From positions 6,924 to 70,923 of the forward strand of contig CAYRZH010000002.1 in NCBI GenBank assembly GCA_964428845.1: DNA of 64,000 bases, given 5' to 3'. This DNA comes from an uncultured Candidatus Saccharibacteria bacterium. GTDB lineage: Bacteria > Patescibacteriota > Minisyncoccia > Phycocordibacterales > DATGWK01. Each line of letters opens with the position of its first letter. Position 1 is the first letter of the stretch. The translations under genes and the position numbers were made by a program. Positions 7,925-36,760 of the stretch are shown in pieces. The notes under the pieces are model-generated. The model made no database searches, was not told the DNA's origin, and was given only the letters and a program-made list of their open reading frames with translations.

Positions 7925-8242
7925 CTCCGCGGGTAGGATTCGAACCTACGACCAATCGCTTACATTTGCTCCAAGCTTTCGCTCGGTATGGACTATATCA
8001 TCATCCTTCACCTGGTGGGTGGTTTGGATGTGGGGCGCTTCGTTCTGCTCTTGCAGAACTACTCTCTTGCGAGATAGTCTCTGAACCTTTCCTTTGATAA
8101 TTAATCTGGGGACTTGGCTGCTGATTGCCCACGGCTTTACGTTTGGGTTTCCAGCAATTCACCTCATTTTTCAGCCCGTATTCCTACGGGAAGCTGCGTA
8201 ATTTCGACACAGGCGATCGCTCTACCACTGAGCTACCGCGGA
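7925..8242 (-). tRNA. tRNA-Asn(GUU) interrupted by a group I intron (exons 8242-8209 and 7962-7925)
   Basis: The 5' exon reads TCCGCGG TA GCTC AGTGGTA GAGC G ATCGC CUGU. The 3' exon reads UAA GCGAT TGGTC GTAGG TTCGAAT CCTAC CCGCGGA G. This gives a perfect 7-bp acceptor stem, a CUGUUAA anticodon loop and G73 discriminator (fits Asn); CCA is not encoded. Confidence 0.75.
7963..8208 (-). ncRNA. group I self-splicing intron (246 nt) in the tRNA-Asn anticodon loop
   Basis: The conserved core elements occur in the right order: P AATTGCTGGAAA (8159-8148), Q AATCAGCAGCC (8126-8116), R GTTCAGAGACTATC (8086-8073) and S GATGATATAGTCC (8002-7990). The 5' splice site follows a U, the intron ends in G, and a GCAG guide sequence can pair with exon CUGU (U.G). 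Confidence 0.75.
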
Positions 8243-8310
8243 ATATTATATTTTCTACAAACTTCAAAGAACGCTGAACATCATAGCAAAAACTCCTCTA
8301 TAATAAAAGC

Positions 8311-8544
8311 ATGTACATCAAAATCCGCGCCGTACCATCGGCTAAAAAAGAGCTGTTCGAGCAAGTCTCCAAAGACCACTTTAAGATTACTGTGCGCGAG
8401 AAGCCGAAGAACAACCAGGCCAATCAGCGCATCGTCGCTCTCGTGGCTTCCCACTTCAAGATCGCTTCAGGGAAGGTGAGAATTATTTCAGGCCATCATT
8501 CGCCAAGCAAAATTCTTTCAGTCGATATTGAAACAGTCGGTTAA
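8311..8544 (+). CDS. DUF167 / YggU-family protein
   Basis: MYIKIRAVPSAKKE....ITVREKPKNNQANQRIVALVASHF...GKVRIISG matches the YggU pattern. Confidence 0.65.
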   Translation: MYIKIRAVPSAKKELFEQVSKDHFKITVREKPKNNQANQRIVALVASHFKIASGKVRIISGHHSPSKILSVDIETVG

Positions 8545-12550: not shown

Positions 12551-12670
12551 AAGACAAAATCCGCACAAGCTACCTCGCCTCGCACGGATATTTTTCTGCT
12601 GAAAAATTCCTCGTGCTCGCGCCGTCGCGCTCGCAAGGCTTCGTCTCGGTACTTGTGCGGATTTTGTCTT
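12551..12670. repeat. 120-bp element with 19-bp perfect terminal inverted repeats (AAGACAAAATCCGCACAAG / CTTGTGCGGATTTTGTCTT) around a GC-rich core
   Basis: Seen directly; the right arm overlaps the murA stop codon. It sits between murA and priA on the minus strand and may be a terminator structure or a MITE. Confidence 0.5.
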
Positions 12671-14180
12671 ATAAATCTCTCAATATCTGAATCTTTGCAC
12701 CAAGGCTATTGAGTCGCTTGATGATATCTTCGTAGCCACGATTGATACTGTAAATATTTCGTAGCACCGAGGTGCCCGAAGCCGCGAGCATACCGATAAG
12801 GATAATTGCGGCGGGGCGAAGGGCTGGCGGGCAAATGACCTCTGCCGCCTTGAGCTTTGTCGGACCGGTGATATAGATGCGATGTGGGTCGGCAAGTAGT
12901 GTGTCGGCGCCGAGTTTGTCGAGCTCTTTGTAGTGTATGGCGCGTTTCTCATAGACCCAGTCGTGTATAAAGGTGGTACCTTTGGCTTGGGTGGCGATCA
13001 CCGCGAAAAATGGAAGATTGTCTATGTTTAGTCCTGGATATGGTCGTGCCTCGATCTTTTCCTCGAGAGCCACGAGTTCGCTTGGTGATGTCTTGATATC
13101 TACTAGATTGGTACGTTCATTTAAGGCTTTATAACTTTTTATAATTTTATATTTAAAACCCATCTTCTCGAGTTTGAGCAGTTCGAGTTCTAGAAAATCA
13201 ATAGGACAGCGGCGAATGGTTATGCTCGACTTGGTCACTGCTGCCACGGCGATAAAAAACATGGACTCGATCGGATCCTCGCTCACATAATACGTGATCG
13301 GCTGGTCTATCACTTCTTTACCATGGATAGTTATTGTCGTTGTGCCTATACCTTCTATCTTCACGCCCAATTTTTCTAAAAAAAAGCAGACTTCTTGGCC
13401 CATGTAGTTGGCAGAAGCAAACTTGATGACAGTTTTTCCCGGGATCTTGGCGGCGGCGATGATGGTATTTTCGGTAACTGTGTCACCAGACTCGTAGAGC
13501 ACGATATAGTTGGGTTTGAGTGCATCTCTCTTCACCTCATAATGTTTGGAGGTGGTTTTTATATCCACCCCAAACTTTTCTAGGGCAAAAACATGAGGCT
13601 GTATAGTCCTAGAACCAAGTCTACACCCGCCAGCCTGGGGGAGTTTAAAACTTTTCGAGTTATGTATTAGGGAGCCGATAAGCATGATAATGCTTCTAGT
13701 TTTCTCTGCGGCTTCTGTGTTTATCTTTTTTATATCAATATTTTTAGGTGGTTTTATCTCGAGATCAGCACCACTCCATTTTGCCGATACGCCCATGCTC
13801 TCGAAGACCTCTATCATCCTGCGAACTTCTTCTATGCGAGGAACATTTTTTAAGATTGTTTTGTTTTTGTTTAAAAGGGAAGCGGCAAGAAGACCCATGG
13901 TGCCGTTTTTTGAAGTTTTTGTGACGATCTCGCCGGAAAGTTTTCTCCCGCCATCTATTTTTACATTTATTGCGCCACGAGAAATATTTAGAATATCCTT
14001 GTTCAACACAGAGCTGATCTTTGAGAGTGTCTCCGTGCTTAGGTTCTGCTCACCCTTCTCGATACGAGCAATGACACTTTGGGTTGTTCCGAGTGCTTTA
14101 CCAAACTCTTTCTGGGTGATACCACGCTCTTCTCGGAGGGTATGTATAAGTTTGCCGATATGTGCGAGCTGACTTTTCAT
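12669..14180 (-). CDS. murA: UDP-N-acetylglucosamine 1-carboxyvinyltransferase with an N-terminal XRE-type helix-turn-helix domain (HTH-MurA fusion)
   Basis: The N-terminal ~75 aa (LIHTLREERGITQKEFGKALGTTQSVIARIEKGEQNLSTETLSKISSVL) is an XRE HTH. It continues in one frame into a MurA N-terminus (KNGTMGLLAASLL..NVP) and a full MurA body. Confidence 0.8.
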   Translation of the reverse strand: MKSQLAHIGKLIHTLREERGITQKEFGKALGTTQSVIARIEKGEQNLSTETLSKISSVLNKDILNISRGAINVKIDGGRKLSGEIVTKTSKNGTMGLLAASLLNKNKTILKNVPRIEEVRRMIEVFESMGVSAKWSGADLEIKPPKNIDIKKINTEAAEKTRSIIMLIGSLIHNSKSFKLPQAGGCRLGSRTIQPHVFALEKFGVDIKTTSKHYEVKRDALKPNYIVLYESGDTVTENTIIAAAKIPGKTVIKFASANYMGQEVCFFLEKLGVKIEGIGTTTITIHGKEVIDQPITYYVSEDPIESMFFIAVAAVTKSSITIRRCPIDFLELELLKLEKMGFKYKIIKSYKALNERTNLVDIKTSPSELVALEEKIEARPYPGLNIDNLPFFAVIATQAKGTTFIHDWVYEKRAIHYKELDKLGADTLLADPHRIYITGPTKLKAAEVICPPALRPAAIILIGMLAASGTSVLRNIYSINRGYEDIIKRLNSLGAKIQILRDL

Positions 14181-14285
14181 ATTTAAAATCAGCATAGCAT
14201 ATATGATATGTTTTGTCTTGTCATTGATGATCTGAATTGTGGATAATGATAAGTAATCTTTTCTAGGCCAAACTTTTTTCATAAA

Positions 14286-14320
14286 AAATAGTTGTCAATT
14301 GAGTGGAATCAGAATATTAT
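14286..14320 (+). promoter_or_regulatory. sigma70-like promoter for mreB
   Basis: TTGTCA - 17 nt - TATTAT. Confidence 0.4.
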
Positions 14321-14340
14321 TGAGTTCGATCACTAAAAAT

Positions 14341-15354
14341 ATGGCTTTTTTACGCAAAAAATTGGGAATCGATCTCGGTACCACAAGCACACTGGTTTTT
14401 GTCCCGGGCAAAGGGGTTGTCTTAAATGAACCCTCCGTGGTAGCTGTTTCTGAAGAGGACAACAAGATCATGGCTATTGGTATCGAAGCCAAAAGCATGA
14501 TCGGTAAGACTCCAGAAAGTATTATTGCCTACAGACCCATGAAGGATGGAGTTATTGCTGACTATCGTGTCACCGAGGCCATGCTTCGGTATTATATAAA
14601 TAAAGCTTTGCCGAAATGGAACCTTACAAAACCCGAAGTCCTCATCTCTGTCCCTGCTGGTGTAACTTCCACAGAACGTCGCGCGGTCATCGAGGCGGCG
14701 ATCAAGGCGGGGGCCAAGAATGCTTATGTGGTAAAAGAACCCATCCTTGCGGCAATCGGAGCGGGAATTCCGATCCAGGAAGCAGTAGGGCATATGATAG
14801 TCGATATCGGTGGAGGTACCACTGACGTTGCAGTGATCTCGCTCGGGGGTATAGTAGCGGCCAAATCCGTAAAATGTGCTGGCAACAAGATCGACTACGC
14901 TATTGCCGACTATATCAAGAAGACATTCAATCTAGCGATCGGAGACAAAACTGCTGAAGATGTGAAGATTAAGATAGGTTCGGCTATTCCACTCGACGAA
15001 GAACTCTCGATCACCATCAAAGGTCGAGACTTTATTTCTGGTCTACCACGCTCGGTTGAGATAAAGACAAACGAGATCGTCAAAGCTATAGGTAGGGAAT
15101 TGCGGGAAATGGTCAAAGCTATAAAAGATGTCTTTCAGGATACTCCGCCAGAGCTTGCCTCGGACATTATTGATAGGGGAATAATAATGACCGGAGGATC
15201 CTCTCAACTTCGAAATCTCCCAGAACTTGTTTATCGAAGAACCGGTGTGAAGGCTATTCTTGCAGAAGATCCAATTTTTTGTGTTGTGAAAGGTACAGGA
15301 ATAGCCCTCGAGCACTTAGCTGTGTATAAGAAAAGCATTATCGCCAAAAGGTAG
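14341..15354 (+). CDS. mreB: rod shape-determining protein MreB (paralog 1)
   Basis: Actin-like ATPase motifs (LGIDLGTTST, DIGGGTTD). Confidence 0.85.
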   Translation: MAFLRKKLGIDLGTTSTLVFVPGKGVVLNEPSVVAVSEEDNKIMAIGIEAKSMIGKTPESIIAYRPMKDGVIADYRVTEAMLRYYINKALPKWNLTKPEVLISVPAGVTSTERRAVIEAAIKAGAKNAYVVKEPILAAIGAGIPIQEAVGHMIVDIGGGTTDVAVISLGGIVAAKSVKCAGNKIDYAIADYIKKTFNLAIGDKTAEDVKIKIGSAIPLDEELSITIKGRDFISGLPRSVEIKTNEIVKAIGRELREMVKAIKDVFQDTPPELASDIIDRGIIMTGGSSQLRNLPELVYRRTGVKAILAEDPIFCVVKGTGIALEHLAVYKKSIIAKR

Positions 15355-15410
15355 TTATTTTTTGGCTTTTTTGACGATTGTTAAAAAAAGATTTTTAATA
15401 TTGGATGTTG

Positions 15411-15438
15411 TTGACCTCTACTGAAATTGGAGTAATAT
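15411..15438 (+). promoter_or_regulatory. sigma70-like promoter of the unassigned RNA
   Basis: TTGACC - 16 nt - TAATAT. Confidence 0.45.
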
Positions 15439-15444
15439 TTCAAA

Positions 15445-15745
15445 CCAGGAGCGTGCATCAGACGAAAGAGCTTCCCGCAACGCGGCTCAATTGCCGCAAC
15501 AAACCCTGACCTCTTGCCAAAGGCTCGGCTACAAACCCACCGTCCCAACAGTGGGCGACAAGGGAGCGTAGTTTCCGCAAGGAAGGAACCCGTCGGGTTC
15601 TCGATCCGTTGTCGGGAGGAGATTCCGGCAATAGTCCGGAACGAACCCCCCCAAGGGTAAAGGGAAGAGTACTGGGGTCCGCTCAAAAAGACTCTGCCAC
15701 GCACGCAAACCTATCCCCCCGGCCATCACGGTTGGGGGGATTTTC
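15445..15745 (+). ncRNA. unassigned structured RNA candidate (~300 nt, GC-rich)
   Basis: About 58% GC in a ~40% GC genome, with no credible ORF on either strand. It is bracketed by a strong promoter and a CCCCCC..GGGGGG-Urich intrinsic terminator and contains a GNRA-capped helix (UUUCC GCAA GGAAG). Confidence 0.4.
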
Positions 15746-15749
15746 ATTT
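15715..15749 (+). terminator. intrinsic terminator of the unassigned RNA
   Basis: CCCCCC ggccatcacggtt GGGGGG followed by ATTTTCATTT. Confidence 0.6.
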
Positions 15750-15807
15750 ATTTGTTAGCCTTTTAGATTTATTCGATGGCGGGTGTTTTTAGTATAATGT
15801 TTGTATC

Positions 15808-16518
15808 GTGGAAACTTTAAAGAGAATCTATAGGGAAACATCCACTTTGCACCACGCCTGCCTTCTTTTGGGAGAAAGCGACTCACTTCTTAAAAAATTA
15901 GTTGATTTTCTAGAAGATGAAACCTCTTTTCGTTCTCGCGGCAATCCAGACTTCTTCCAAATTTCTCTCGATGTCTGCGGCATCGACGAAGCTCGCATGC
16001 TCAAAGATAGAGCTTTGATGAGGCCTATTGGGGATATCAAGATAGTGATTGTTTCCTTTAACTCTATAACCACTGAAGCCCAAAATTCTCTCTTGAAGAT
16101 TTTTGAAGAACCTTTGGGTCAGACCCATTTTTTTGTTATCGCTCCCAACAAAGAAATATTTCTCGATACGTTATTATCAAGATTTTTTGTTGTTGATGGT
16201 GAACTAGACGGCAGTACTGACAGAAGTAAAATGGATAGTGTAGCCGAATCATTCTTGAAGTCATCTCCAAAAGACAGGATCTCTCAAGTCGCTAGCATGA
16301 TAGAAAAAAAGGATAAAACTGAAGTCGTTCGGTTTCTAAACTCCCTCGAAGGTTTGATATCCAAAAGTCTAAAAAAAGATGGGCCATCAGAGAGTTTGGT
16401 AAACATTTCAGAAGAGATACTTCGTTCAAAGAGTTTCCTCTACGATCGTTCTCCATCACTCAAGATGATTCTCGAACATTTATCTTGTATTATACCTATA
16501 TCCAATAAATCCAAATGA
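15808..16518 (+). CDS. holB: DNA polymerase III delta-prime subunit-like (clamp-loader) protein
   Basis: AAA+ clamp-loader-like N-domain (HHACLLLGE, DEARML..IVSFNSITTEAQNSLLKIFEEP). Confidence 0.65.
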   Translation: METLKRIYRETSTLHHACLLLGESDSLLKKLVDFLEDETSFRSRGNPDFFQISLDVCGIDEARMLKDRALMRPIGDIKIVIVSFNSITTEAQNSLLKIFEEPLGQTHFFVIAPNKEIFLDTLLSRFFVVDGELDGSTDRSKMDSVAESFLKSSPKDRISQVASMIEKKDKTEVVRFLNSLEGLISKSLKKDGPSESLVNISEEILRSKSFLYDRSPSLKMILEHLSCIIPISNKSK

Positions 16519-36438: not shown

Positions 36439-36510
36439 GGCCCTATCGTCTAACGGTTAGGACGGGAGCTTCTCAAGCTCCAAATCCGGGTTCGATTCCC
36501 GGTAGGGTCA
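36439..36510 (+). tRNA. tRNA-Glu(CUC)
   Basis: GGCCCTA TC GTCT AACGGTTA GGAC G GGAGC TTCTCAA GCTCC AAAT CCGGG TTCGATT CCCGG TAGGGTC A; a Glu-like D-arm. Confidence 0.75.
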
Positions 36511-36650
36511 GAGATTTGAGCGGGCCGAGAAGCTCTGGCCCTAAGCGGGCCGACTTCTCGGCCCGCGTCCGGGAATCGAACGCCGGAGCGATGTTTCGCC
36601 AGTAGGCGAAACCGCGAGGCGGTGCCCAGCCCGAGGCTAGGGCGGCGAGC
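36511..36650. other. GC-rich hairpin-dense segment following the tRNA (includes an inverted T-arm-like fragment)
   Basis: Perfect hairpins GCGGGCCGA cttc TCGGCCCGC (36546-36567) and GTTTCGCC agta GGCGAAAC (36592-36615); GTCCGGGAATCGAACGCC is an inverted partial copy of the tRNA T-arm. Confidence 0.4.
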
Positions 36651-36681
36651 CGAGAGGCGCGGGAGATTCCCGGTAGGGTAA
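36651..36681 (+). repeat. direct repeat DR-a containing a copy of the tRNA-Glu 3' end (att-like)
   Basis: CGAGAGGCGCGGGAGATTCCCGGTAGGGTAA; 14 of its bases (ATTCCCGGTAGGGT) match the tRNA 3' end. Confidence 0.6.
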
Positions 36682-36760
36682 TAGATGCTAAATATTAATT
36701 TGATCATTTGTGTTATATTCTCATAAGAAACACCTTAGCCATTACAGGAGGGAGTAATAA

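Follow-up and report, generated by a model that had tools for sequence, protein, structure and literature searches.

The 64,000-nt stretch of contig CAYRZH010000002.1 analysed here (hereafter the window, to which all coordinates refer) carries a GC-rich intergenic segment between mreB and a holB-like gene, which a preliminary description had presented as a ~300-nt RNA gene with its own promoter and terminator. The gene was recovered with the coordinates and features described. Judged from sequence, positions 15411-15750 would constitute an independent gene for a ~300-nt non-coding stable RNA, an orphan that evolves fast and acts in trans, and about even confidence is attached to this interpretation. 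The neighbourhood comprises genes for a MurA-like protein, MreB, the HolB-like protein, an ORF of no assigned family, RRF and RseP. MreB and the HolB-like protein were called by Pfam matches, and the locus was found to contain the following features.

14299-15354 (+): MreB (PF06723, E 2.8e-131)
15343-15366 (+): terminator-like hairpin closing the mreB transcript, a 10-bp stem followed by TTTTTTGACG
15411-15416 (+): -35 hexamer TTGACC, 16 nt before the -10 box
15433-15438 (+): -10 hexamer TAATAT, in the context GGAGTAATAT
15445-15750 (+): predicted transcript, its start placed from the sequence ~7 nt after the -10 box (+/- 3 nt) and its 3' end in the U-run
15713-15741 (+): intrinsic terminator hairpin, a 12-bp stem with 8 GC pairs and a 5-nt loop, followed by TTTTCATTTAT / UUUUCAUUUAU
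15793-15798 (+): TATAAT -10 box of holB, 9 nt before the GTG at 15808
15808-16518 (+): HolB-like protein (PF13177, E 1.5e-12), with a GTG start at 15808

The putative promoter is sigma-70-like and near-consensus and lies ~90 nt past mreB, beyond the hairpin at 15343-15366 that is predicted to separate mreB from the RNA gene. Sequences resembling a promoter are frequent in this DNA (in 1.2 kb, 4 matches versus 1.5 +/- 1.2 expected), so that the promoter motif alone is weak evidence. The predicted transcript consists of a ~270-nt body and the terminator, which ends ~65 nt upstream of holB; because its T-run is present on the plus strand and absent from the reverse strand, this terminator is expected to act on the plus strand only.

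The body was correctly described as GC-rich: its GC content is 0.59 (59%) at 15445-15712, and 200-nt windows over the region range from 0.53 to 0.58. The baseline of ~40% given with that description is slightly low, the corresponding values being 0.41 (41%) for other non-ORF DNA, 0.45 for ORFs and 0.444 (44.4%) for the whole window. Several coding stretches of the window are as GC-rich as the RNA body, and a GC-rich intergenic stretch is exceptional in it. In agreement with the earlier statement that no plausible ORF is present, the region holds no more than two short plus-strand ORFs starting with TTG (48-49 aa) and, on the antisense strand, ORFs of 57-107 aa. A Pfam search of five ORFs in the region gave no match at E<=1, and tblastx among 11 positional counterparts gave nothing below E 0.01, hence no translated similarity. 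The RNA region is thus predicted to be non-coding, with no credible ORF. In addition, blastn of the region against phages returned no match, and no second copy was found within the 64-kb window or elsewhere in the relatives' loci searched.

The relatives identified through MreB belong to the Patescibacteria, namely to Paceibacteria, Zambryskibacteria, Kaiserbacteria and similar groups. Among 5.8 billion proteins the closest HolB besides the window's own is only 57% identical, so the lineage must be regarded as poorly sampled. Homologues were searched for in 178 loci (given individually as L numbers), among them 80 loci with mreB, 80 metagenome loci with holB and 16 contigs retrieved through protein identity. 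The gene order murA-like, mreB, holB, orf, frr, rseP, proS, mreB2 is kept in the nearest relatives, and the layout of promoter, GC-rich body and terminator upstream of holB recurs in ten other distinct Paceibacteria loci. Five of these (L082, L174, L166, L169 and L170) encode a HolB 48-52% identical to that of the window, and the other five, more distant metagenome loci (L127, L128, L150, L156 and L114), one that is 35-40% identical. The mreB-holB spacer measures 340-410 nt in L082/83/84, L174/175 (whose contig begins at the very end of mreB), L166-168, L169 and L170, and on the same strand it contains a near-consensus TTGACx-16/17-TAnnnT promoter, a 170-280-nt GC-rich body, a strong terminator and the holB box.

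The shared features extend beyond position. Promoters with >=9/12 matches were called in 9 of the 11 loci, TTGAC recurs at that position with little or no variation in all 11, and the -10 context GAGTA(A/G)YAT aligns across loci. In 11/11, body GC is 10-22 points higher than in the remaining non-ORF DNA of that locus. Core fold z-scores reach -6.6, -6.0, -5.7, -4.7, -4.3, -4.1 and -3.2 in seven members and lie between -2.0 and -0.9 in four, the window copy included, and significant pairing of the 5' and 3' ends was found in L082, L127, L150 and L174. The tetramer CAGA, usually as (G)CAGAG, occurs within the first 40 nt of 8/11 RNAs, a level reached by 0/2000 shuffles (P=0.002 in an any-4-mer control), and CTGCC occurs within the last 45 nt of 4/11, including the window copy (P=0.001). 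When position was ignored, no k-mer of 5-7 nt common to the 11 RNAs stood above shuffles. Chance does not explain this recurrence together with the GC enrichment, foldability and 5' box. Altogether, the RNA gene belongs to a lineage-restricted positional family located upstream of holB; in those loci whose upstream gene could be seen, the slot is flanked by mreB and holB.

Some further observations were made in these loci. The MurA-like enzyme (EPSP_synthase fold) at 12669-14282 (-) carries an N-terminal HTH_3 DNA-binding domain, a fusion also present in L081 and L166 and not in L082 or L085. The mreB-holB spacers of L002 (5012-5190), L135, L094, L100, L142 and L106 contain near-perfect 20-30-bp inverted repeats instead of the RNA gene, with the core CTCGCGCCGTCGCGCTCC common to L002 and L135 and CACCTTTCGCAA common to L094 and L100; these may represent a family of hairpin elements or bidirectional terminators. 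At L171 1540-1660, tRNA-like sequences, one apparently with an insertion, replace mreB and the RNA gene upstream of holB. A search for HolB relatives in viral contigs gave two irrelevant loci only.

The constant position of the RNA unit raises the possibility that it is a cis element of the holB operon, either a leader or attenuator metering read-through into holB-frr-rseP-proS or a mere insulator between mreB and holB. Wherever it occurs, the unit immediately precedes holB in the same orientation, and its terminator is 50-65 nt from the holB start. Against this, a conserved TGnTATAAT box stands 6-9 nt ahead of the holB start codon whether or not a locus has the RNA; for instance, the arrangement TGnTATAAT-6/7 nt-ATG is also found in L081, L082, L085, L166, L169, L170 and L174. 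With such a box and no room for a Shine-Dalgarno sequence, holB appears to be leaderless or nearly so, and since its own -10 box lies at the start codon it should be independent of the RNA promoter. Furthermore, the terminators are strong, the bodies contain no conserved sequence that could serve as a sensor, no Rfam match to a riboswitch or leader was obtained, and relatives do without the unit. Because holB keeps its own promoter whether or not the RNA is present, a cis role is considered highly unlikely.

The tempo of change within the family is uneven. Bodies are ~97% identical where HolB is 92% identical (L082 versus L176), and they become essentially unalignable at 83-86% HolB identity. 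Between L082 and L176, the ~130-nt RNA interior differs at 4 positions, 3 of them predicted to be unpaired. Where A has become G in the 5' closing strand, the facing position shows a matching change from U to C; heavy rewriting is seen in the terminator's inner hairpin and in the 3' closing strand. Identity at 4-fold degenerate sites for the same pair is 81% in holB, 96% in orf168 and 91% in frr, and this unevenness among adjacent genes suggests recombination within the locus. Between L082 and L174, where HolB is 83-86% identical and 4-fold sites are 53% and 41% identical, the flanks still align (promoter score 11 versus -4.5 +/- 3.6; post-terminator spacer 21 versus -6.0 +/- 4.0). By eye, L082 and L174 present the same order of a few hairpins, e.g., YCUC...GAGAGGA and GCCGA...UCGGC, and insertions and a shifted closing helix set them apart. 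The terminators of L082, L176 and L174 have compensated stems. These comparisons show a body that has retained its composition and its ability to fold, whereas most of its sequence and some of its architecture have been lost.

Such turnover could also be read as the mark of non-functional DNA, that is, a decaying insertion (e.g., a mobile-element remnant with terminal inverted repeats) or a pseudogene lying by chance between sequences that resemble a promoter and a terminator. Close relatives differ in whether they have the unit, the divergence of L082 from L174 is almost random, several members have long end-to-end inverted repeats, the core fold of the window copy is not significant, and promoter-like matches are frequent in AT-rich DNA. 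Decay, however, should move composition toward the AT-rich background, whereas all 11 bodies stay 10-22 GC points above the surrounding non-ORF DNA. No member has lost its promoter or its terminator, and the terminator stems of L082, L176 and L174 show compensation; the 5' CAGA box is enriched; fold z-scores go down to -6.6; and a second copy was found neither in the window nor elsewhere in the loci searched. Because GC content, promoter, terminator and box are maintained, a junk or decaying sequence is a very improbable explanation of the family; for the window copy taken alone it is possible, if unlikely.

The structure of the window copy was predicted from the single sequence as centroid and minimum free energy (MFE) folds, with z-scores computed against shuffles. 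A 311-nt stretch folds with z -3.3 and the core without the terminator with z -1.46, and most of the former value is attributed to the terminator because the core alone drops to the latter. The helix capped by a GNRA tetraloop, reported earlier, is present. The predicted elements, together with the box, are the following.

15447-15471 (+): 5' strand of the closing helix (AGG, GCGUGC, CAGA, GAGC), predicted in centroid and MFE
15459-15462 (+): CAGA box, within AUCAGAC, from the position-restricted motif test
15482-15497 (+): hairpin GCGGC-UCAAUU-GCCGC, followed by the A-rich linker AACAAAC, in the centroid
15536-15555 (+): hairpin CCCAC...GUGGG with a C-rich loop, in the centroid
15557-15613 (+): predicted three-way junction, in the MFE, its two hairpins also in the centroid
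15573-15584 (+): GNRA hairpin UUCC-GCAA-GGAA, in the three-way junction, MFE and centroid
15585-15601 (+): hairpin GGAACCC-GUC-GGGUUCU, in the three-way junction, MFE and centroid
15623-15641 (+): hairpin UUCCGGC-AAUA-GUCCGGAA, followed by AACGAA and a C7 run, in the centroid
15681-15712 (+): 3' strand of the closing helix (GCUC, UCUG, GCACGC, CCU), including CUCUGCCAC, predicted in centroid and MFE

Hairpins of the form CCGR...YCGG that resemble the one at 15623-15641 were seen by eye in L082, L174 and L166. A conserved closing helix formed by CAGA and UCUGCC was considered and rejected, as the helix between box and tail is significant only in L082 and L174 and not in the window copy. Sequence-level comparison of the counterparts gave little: nhmmer all-against-all among them returned nothing at E<=10, a MAFFT alignment of five RNAs reached 38% column identity and was not meaningful, and no architecture common to the members could be demonstrated.

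Membership of known RNA families was tested with Rfam 15. The scans covered the window (gathering threshold, then E<=1), 551 nt of the region and its 276-nt core (both at E<=10), and 11 related loci (E<=5). This search, proposed in the preliminary description, assigned no standard family to the RNA region, which had no match at the gathering threshold or at E<=10 on either length; the counterparts were likewise without a match, and the scans returned chance matches only (psRNA14, ncr1175, ar14 and isrJ). ARAGORN found no transfer-messenger RNA (tmRNA) in the window. In the study of Lui et al. (2021; PMC8172020), the RNase P RNAs found across the candidate phyla radiation are diverged and fall below Rfam thresholds, so that lowered RF00010 thresholds are needed, yet they keep many conserved RNase P RNA features. 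For this reason signature motifs (CR-I, CR-V, the tmRNA T-arm and the strand of the signal recognition particle (SRP) RNA) were tested directly and scored against shuffles. The tmRNA T-arm and the SRP strand stood at chance level and CR-V was no better than in shuffles, in line with the earlier view that the RNA is unassigned and is not RNase P RNA, tmRNA, SRP RNA or 6S RNA.

A highly diverged universal RNA, either RNase P RNA or SRP RNA, was the alternative to which these tests were most relevant. In its favour, RNase P RNAs of the same organism group are GC-rich, stable and missed by Rfam defaults (PMC8172020), as is the window RNA, which further contains the word AGUCCGG and a GNRA hairpin. 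Its best match to RNase P CR-I (GAGGAAAGUCCGGGC) is GAGGAGAUUCCGGCA, with 4 mismatches, a score equalled by 3% of shuffles. The diverged RNAs of that study nevertheless score with RF00010 at lowered thresholds, whereas RF00010 and RF00011 gave no match at E<=10 on the 276 nt of the window RNA. The best match to CR-V (ACAGAAnnnGGCUUA) is no better than in shuffles, the other ten RNAs have neither CR-I nor CR-V, no P3 helix was found by inspection, and the sequence 3' of the candidate P4 strand is too short for an RNase P core. Counterparts as small as 170-190 nt are too small for RNase P RNA. Threading the RNA by eye through the CR-I, CR-II and CR-III look-alikes GACGAAAGAGC, GCAACAAACC and AAGGGUAAAGGGAAGAG was abandoned because of wrong order, the lack of P3 and too little sequence after them, and a "circularly permuted P4" reading of the hairpin at 15623-15641 was dismissed as a coincidence of its CCGG palindrome.

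The case for SRP RNA fared no better. The GNRA-capped hairpin of the window RNA is followed by GGAAGGAAC, a resemblance to SRP helix 8 on which the preliminary description had remarked, and the RNA lies upstream of a clamp-loader-family gene. The Bacillus subtilis gene scr for the Bacillus-type scRNA is likewise located upstream of such a gene, dnaX. The resemblance does not hold up: GGAAGGAAC has 2 mismatches to the SRP strand GGAAGCAGCC, and 20% of shuffles do as well. In addition, the sequence that would form the 3' half of the symmetric loop falls, by prediction, within the next hairpin (15585-15601), and the adjacent gene is holB-like instead of dnaX. The SRP domain IV pattern (a GNRA-capped helix with an AGG/AGCA symmetric loop) is absent from 11/11 RNAs and present in the E. 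coli 4.5S control. The covariance models RF00169 and RF01854 gave no match at E<=10 for the window RNA, and the counterparts contain no such GNRA hairpin. Invariant motifs would be expected of a universal RNA, yet the 11 RNAs share no above-chance k-mer except CAGA. A diverged RNase P or SRP RNA thus seems largely refuted by the sequence tests and is barely conceivable.

A 6S RNA of the clade, or an analogue of the 6S/Ms1 type, was considered as well; such an RNA is a rod with a large central bubble that mimics an open promoter and sequesters RNA polymerase holoenzyme. Sequence conservation among 6S RNAs is very low. The likeness to 6S RNA (ssrS) and actinobacterial Ms1 lies in a stand-alone RNA of 170-300 nt with little sequence conservation and with ends that pair in several members, significantly so in L082, L127, L150 and L174. 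Furthermore, L082, as the one member in which such a rod was seen, can be drawn in the expected form, with a 20-bp closing stem, a ~25/23-nt bubble with a small hairpin on its 3' side and a ~26-bp irregular terminal stem. No 6S match was found anywhere in the 64-kb window, a result that is uninformative on the rest of the genome. On the other hand, RF00013 and related 6S models gave no match at E<=10 for the window RNA and none for the counterparts, and the window RNA (~270 nt) and L174 are predicted, from MFE structures only, to be multi-branched and not rods. The RNA is also missing from its slot in close relatives, and it diverges faster than is usual for 6S RNA at comparable protein divergence. 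A 6S-type identity is rated as unlikely.

The main rival is a base-pairing regulatory small RNA (sRNA), in which a short single-stranded seed, possibly the 5' (G)CAGAG box, would act on targets and the rest would be a variable scaffold with a terminator. The locus has what is generally found in a stand-alone bacterial sRNA gene: it is intergenic and non-coding, with its own sigma-70-like promoter and an intrinsic terminator. As in trans-encoded sRNAs, the short 5'-proximal box alone is conserved, and rapid turnover and presence or absence among relatives are both typical of them. In most members the box shows no significant pairing with the 3' tail, so it could be accessible. Conversely, bodies of 170-300 nt with 50-59% GC and strongly negative z-scores are larger, more GC-rich and more heavily folded than a scaffold needs, and in at least two members, L082 and L174, the box lies inside a long closing helix. 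We know of no sRNA targets or chaperone in this phylum. According to a preprint on the TM7x transcriptome, no small RNA has been validated. Base pairing through the 5' box is therefore given a low probability, though a somewhat higher one than a 6S-type role.

Two further systems offer partial likenesses. Y RNA and YrlA, which bind Ro, likewise have ends clamped in a stem, a variable interior and a conserved element only near the ends, but Rfam returned no match, and neither a tRNA-like module nor a Ro (Rsr) gene in the neighbourhood was identified. Retron msr-msd RNAs are similarly hypervariable, GC-rich and structured, measure 170-250 nt and have terminal inverted repeats; in contrast, no reverse transcriptase gene is adjacent to the RNA gene, whose neighbours are mreB, holB, frr, rseP and proS, in the same order in relatives. 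By analogy, 6S RNA, Ms1 and the Y RNAs are the nearest functional comparisons, and none of them passes a membership test.

Taken together, these comparisons favour the independent, trans-acting RNA gene outlined at the beginning. In the proposed mechanism, a sigma-70 promoter would start transcription past the mreB terminator, and the intrinsic terminator would stop the RNA before holB. The resulting stable RNA would act in trans. Its fold would be what matters, with a protein as the most likely partner, as for 6S RNA or Y RNA, and the RNA would work neither via a long conserved base-pairing sequence nor as a cis leader of holB.

A number of observations weigh against this interpretation. The core of the window copy folds no better than shuffles (z -1.46), so that the label "highly structured" is not borne out; the pairing of its 5' and 3' ends is not significant (p=0.11), nor is that of box and tail (p=0.8). 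The check for conservation in related genomes, as the preliminary description had envisaged it, was partly positive, since the layout recurs in ten related loci, and partly negative, since nhmmer and blastn found no sequence homologue of the window RNA in the 178 loci, identical contigs aside. A single-sequence covariance model built from L082 and run with filters on and off found no other member, not even L174, and the grounds for treating the family as homologous are position, layout and a 4-nt box. The 97% RNA identity of L082 and L176 is not clearly above neutral expectation (4-fold sites are 81-96% identical in the neighbouring genes), while the bodies of L082 and L174 align hardly above random (score -12 versus -22.6 +/- 6.1), a divergence that would be unusual for a shape-constrained RNA. 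Moreover, the gene is missing from its slot in L081 and L085, with spacers of only 82 and 47 nt, loci that are as close to the window as L082, L174, L166, L169 and L170, and the unit is also missing in more than half of the 80 metagenome holB loci and in most mreB loci. Because of this absence from close relatives and from most other Paceibacteria, the gene would be dispensable or mobile. Finally, the protein-binding mechanism, whether 6S-like or Y-RNA-like, is a guess drawn from analogy.

Elsewhere in the window, the Rfam scan at E<=1 reported only one group I intron and one tRNA. A tRNA gene at 7925-8250 (-), not called by ARAGORN, has its anticodon loop interrupted by this type of intron (RF00028, 82 bits; Rfam call at 7970-8315 (-)), with a 5' exon UCCGCGGUAGCUCAGUGGUAGAGCGAUCGCCU... 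and a 3' exon ...AAGCGAUUGGUCGUAGGUUCGAAUCCUACCCGCGGA. This agrees with the remark of Lui et al. (2021; PMC8172020) that group I introns are frequent in tRNAs of this radiation. A further segment at 36511-36685 (+), 175 nt long with ~70% GC, directly follows tRNA-Glu (36439-36510) and is bounded by a direct repeat of the tRNA 3' end (AUUCCCGGUAGGGU). Its fold has -102 kcal/mol and z -5.9 and includes a perfect 13-bp hairpin, and Rfam returned no match for it; the segment could represent either another structured orphan RNA or an insertion into the 3' end of the tRNA.

The gene near mreB is best seen as an unclassified newcomer among ordinary stand-alone bacterial small RNA genes, and there is a modest chance that it stands for a new functional class. 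A more specific proposal, which is tentative and has a low probability, is a previously undescribed class of stable RNA restricted to a Paceibacteria subclade, with a fixed mreB-holB slot, a conserved promoter, a 5' (G)CAGAG box, a terminator and a rapidly remodelled GC-rich interior. Such an RNA would be the partner of a protein, a regulator or decoy resembling 6S RNA or Y RNA, possibly under diversifying pressure. A literature search found no description of 6S RNA or other small RNAs in Parcubacteria or Patescibacteria, and if the proposal is true, the class would be one of the earliest cases of small RNAs to be defined for the candidate phyla radiation. Mechanistically, nothing is surprising yet. 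The look-alikes excluded here (the SRP-like helix 8 and the AGUCCGG word) guard against mis-annotation as diverged RNase P or SRP RNA. Bodies that are near-identical in close relatives and unalignable slightly further away, between better-kept flanks, are unusual and would be worth explaining if upheld in more genomes. Patescibacteria have tiny, densely coded genomes, and the RNA gene described here, with its promoter, its terminator and a place beside essential genes retained, would provide a concrete candidate for RNA-based regulation in this poorly understood radiation.

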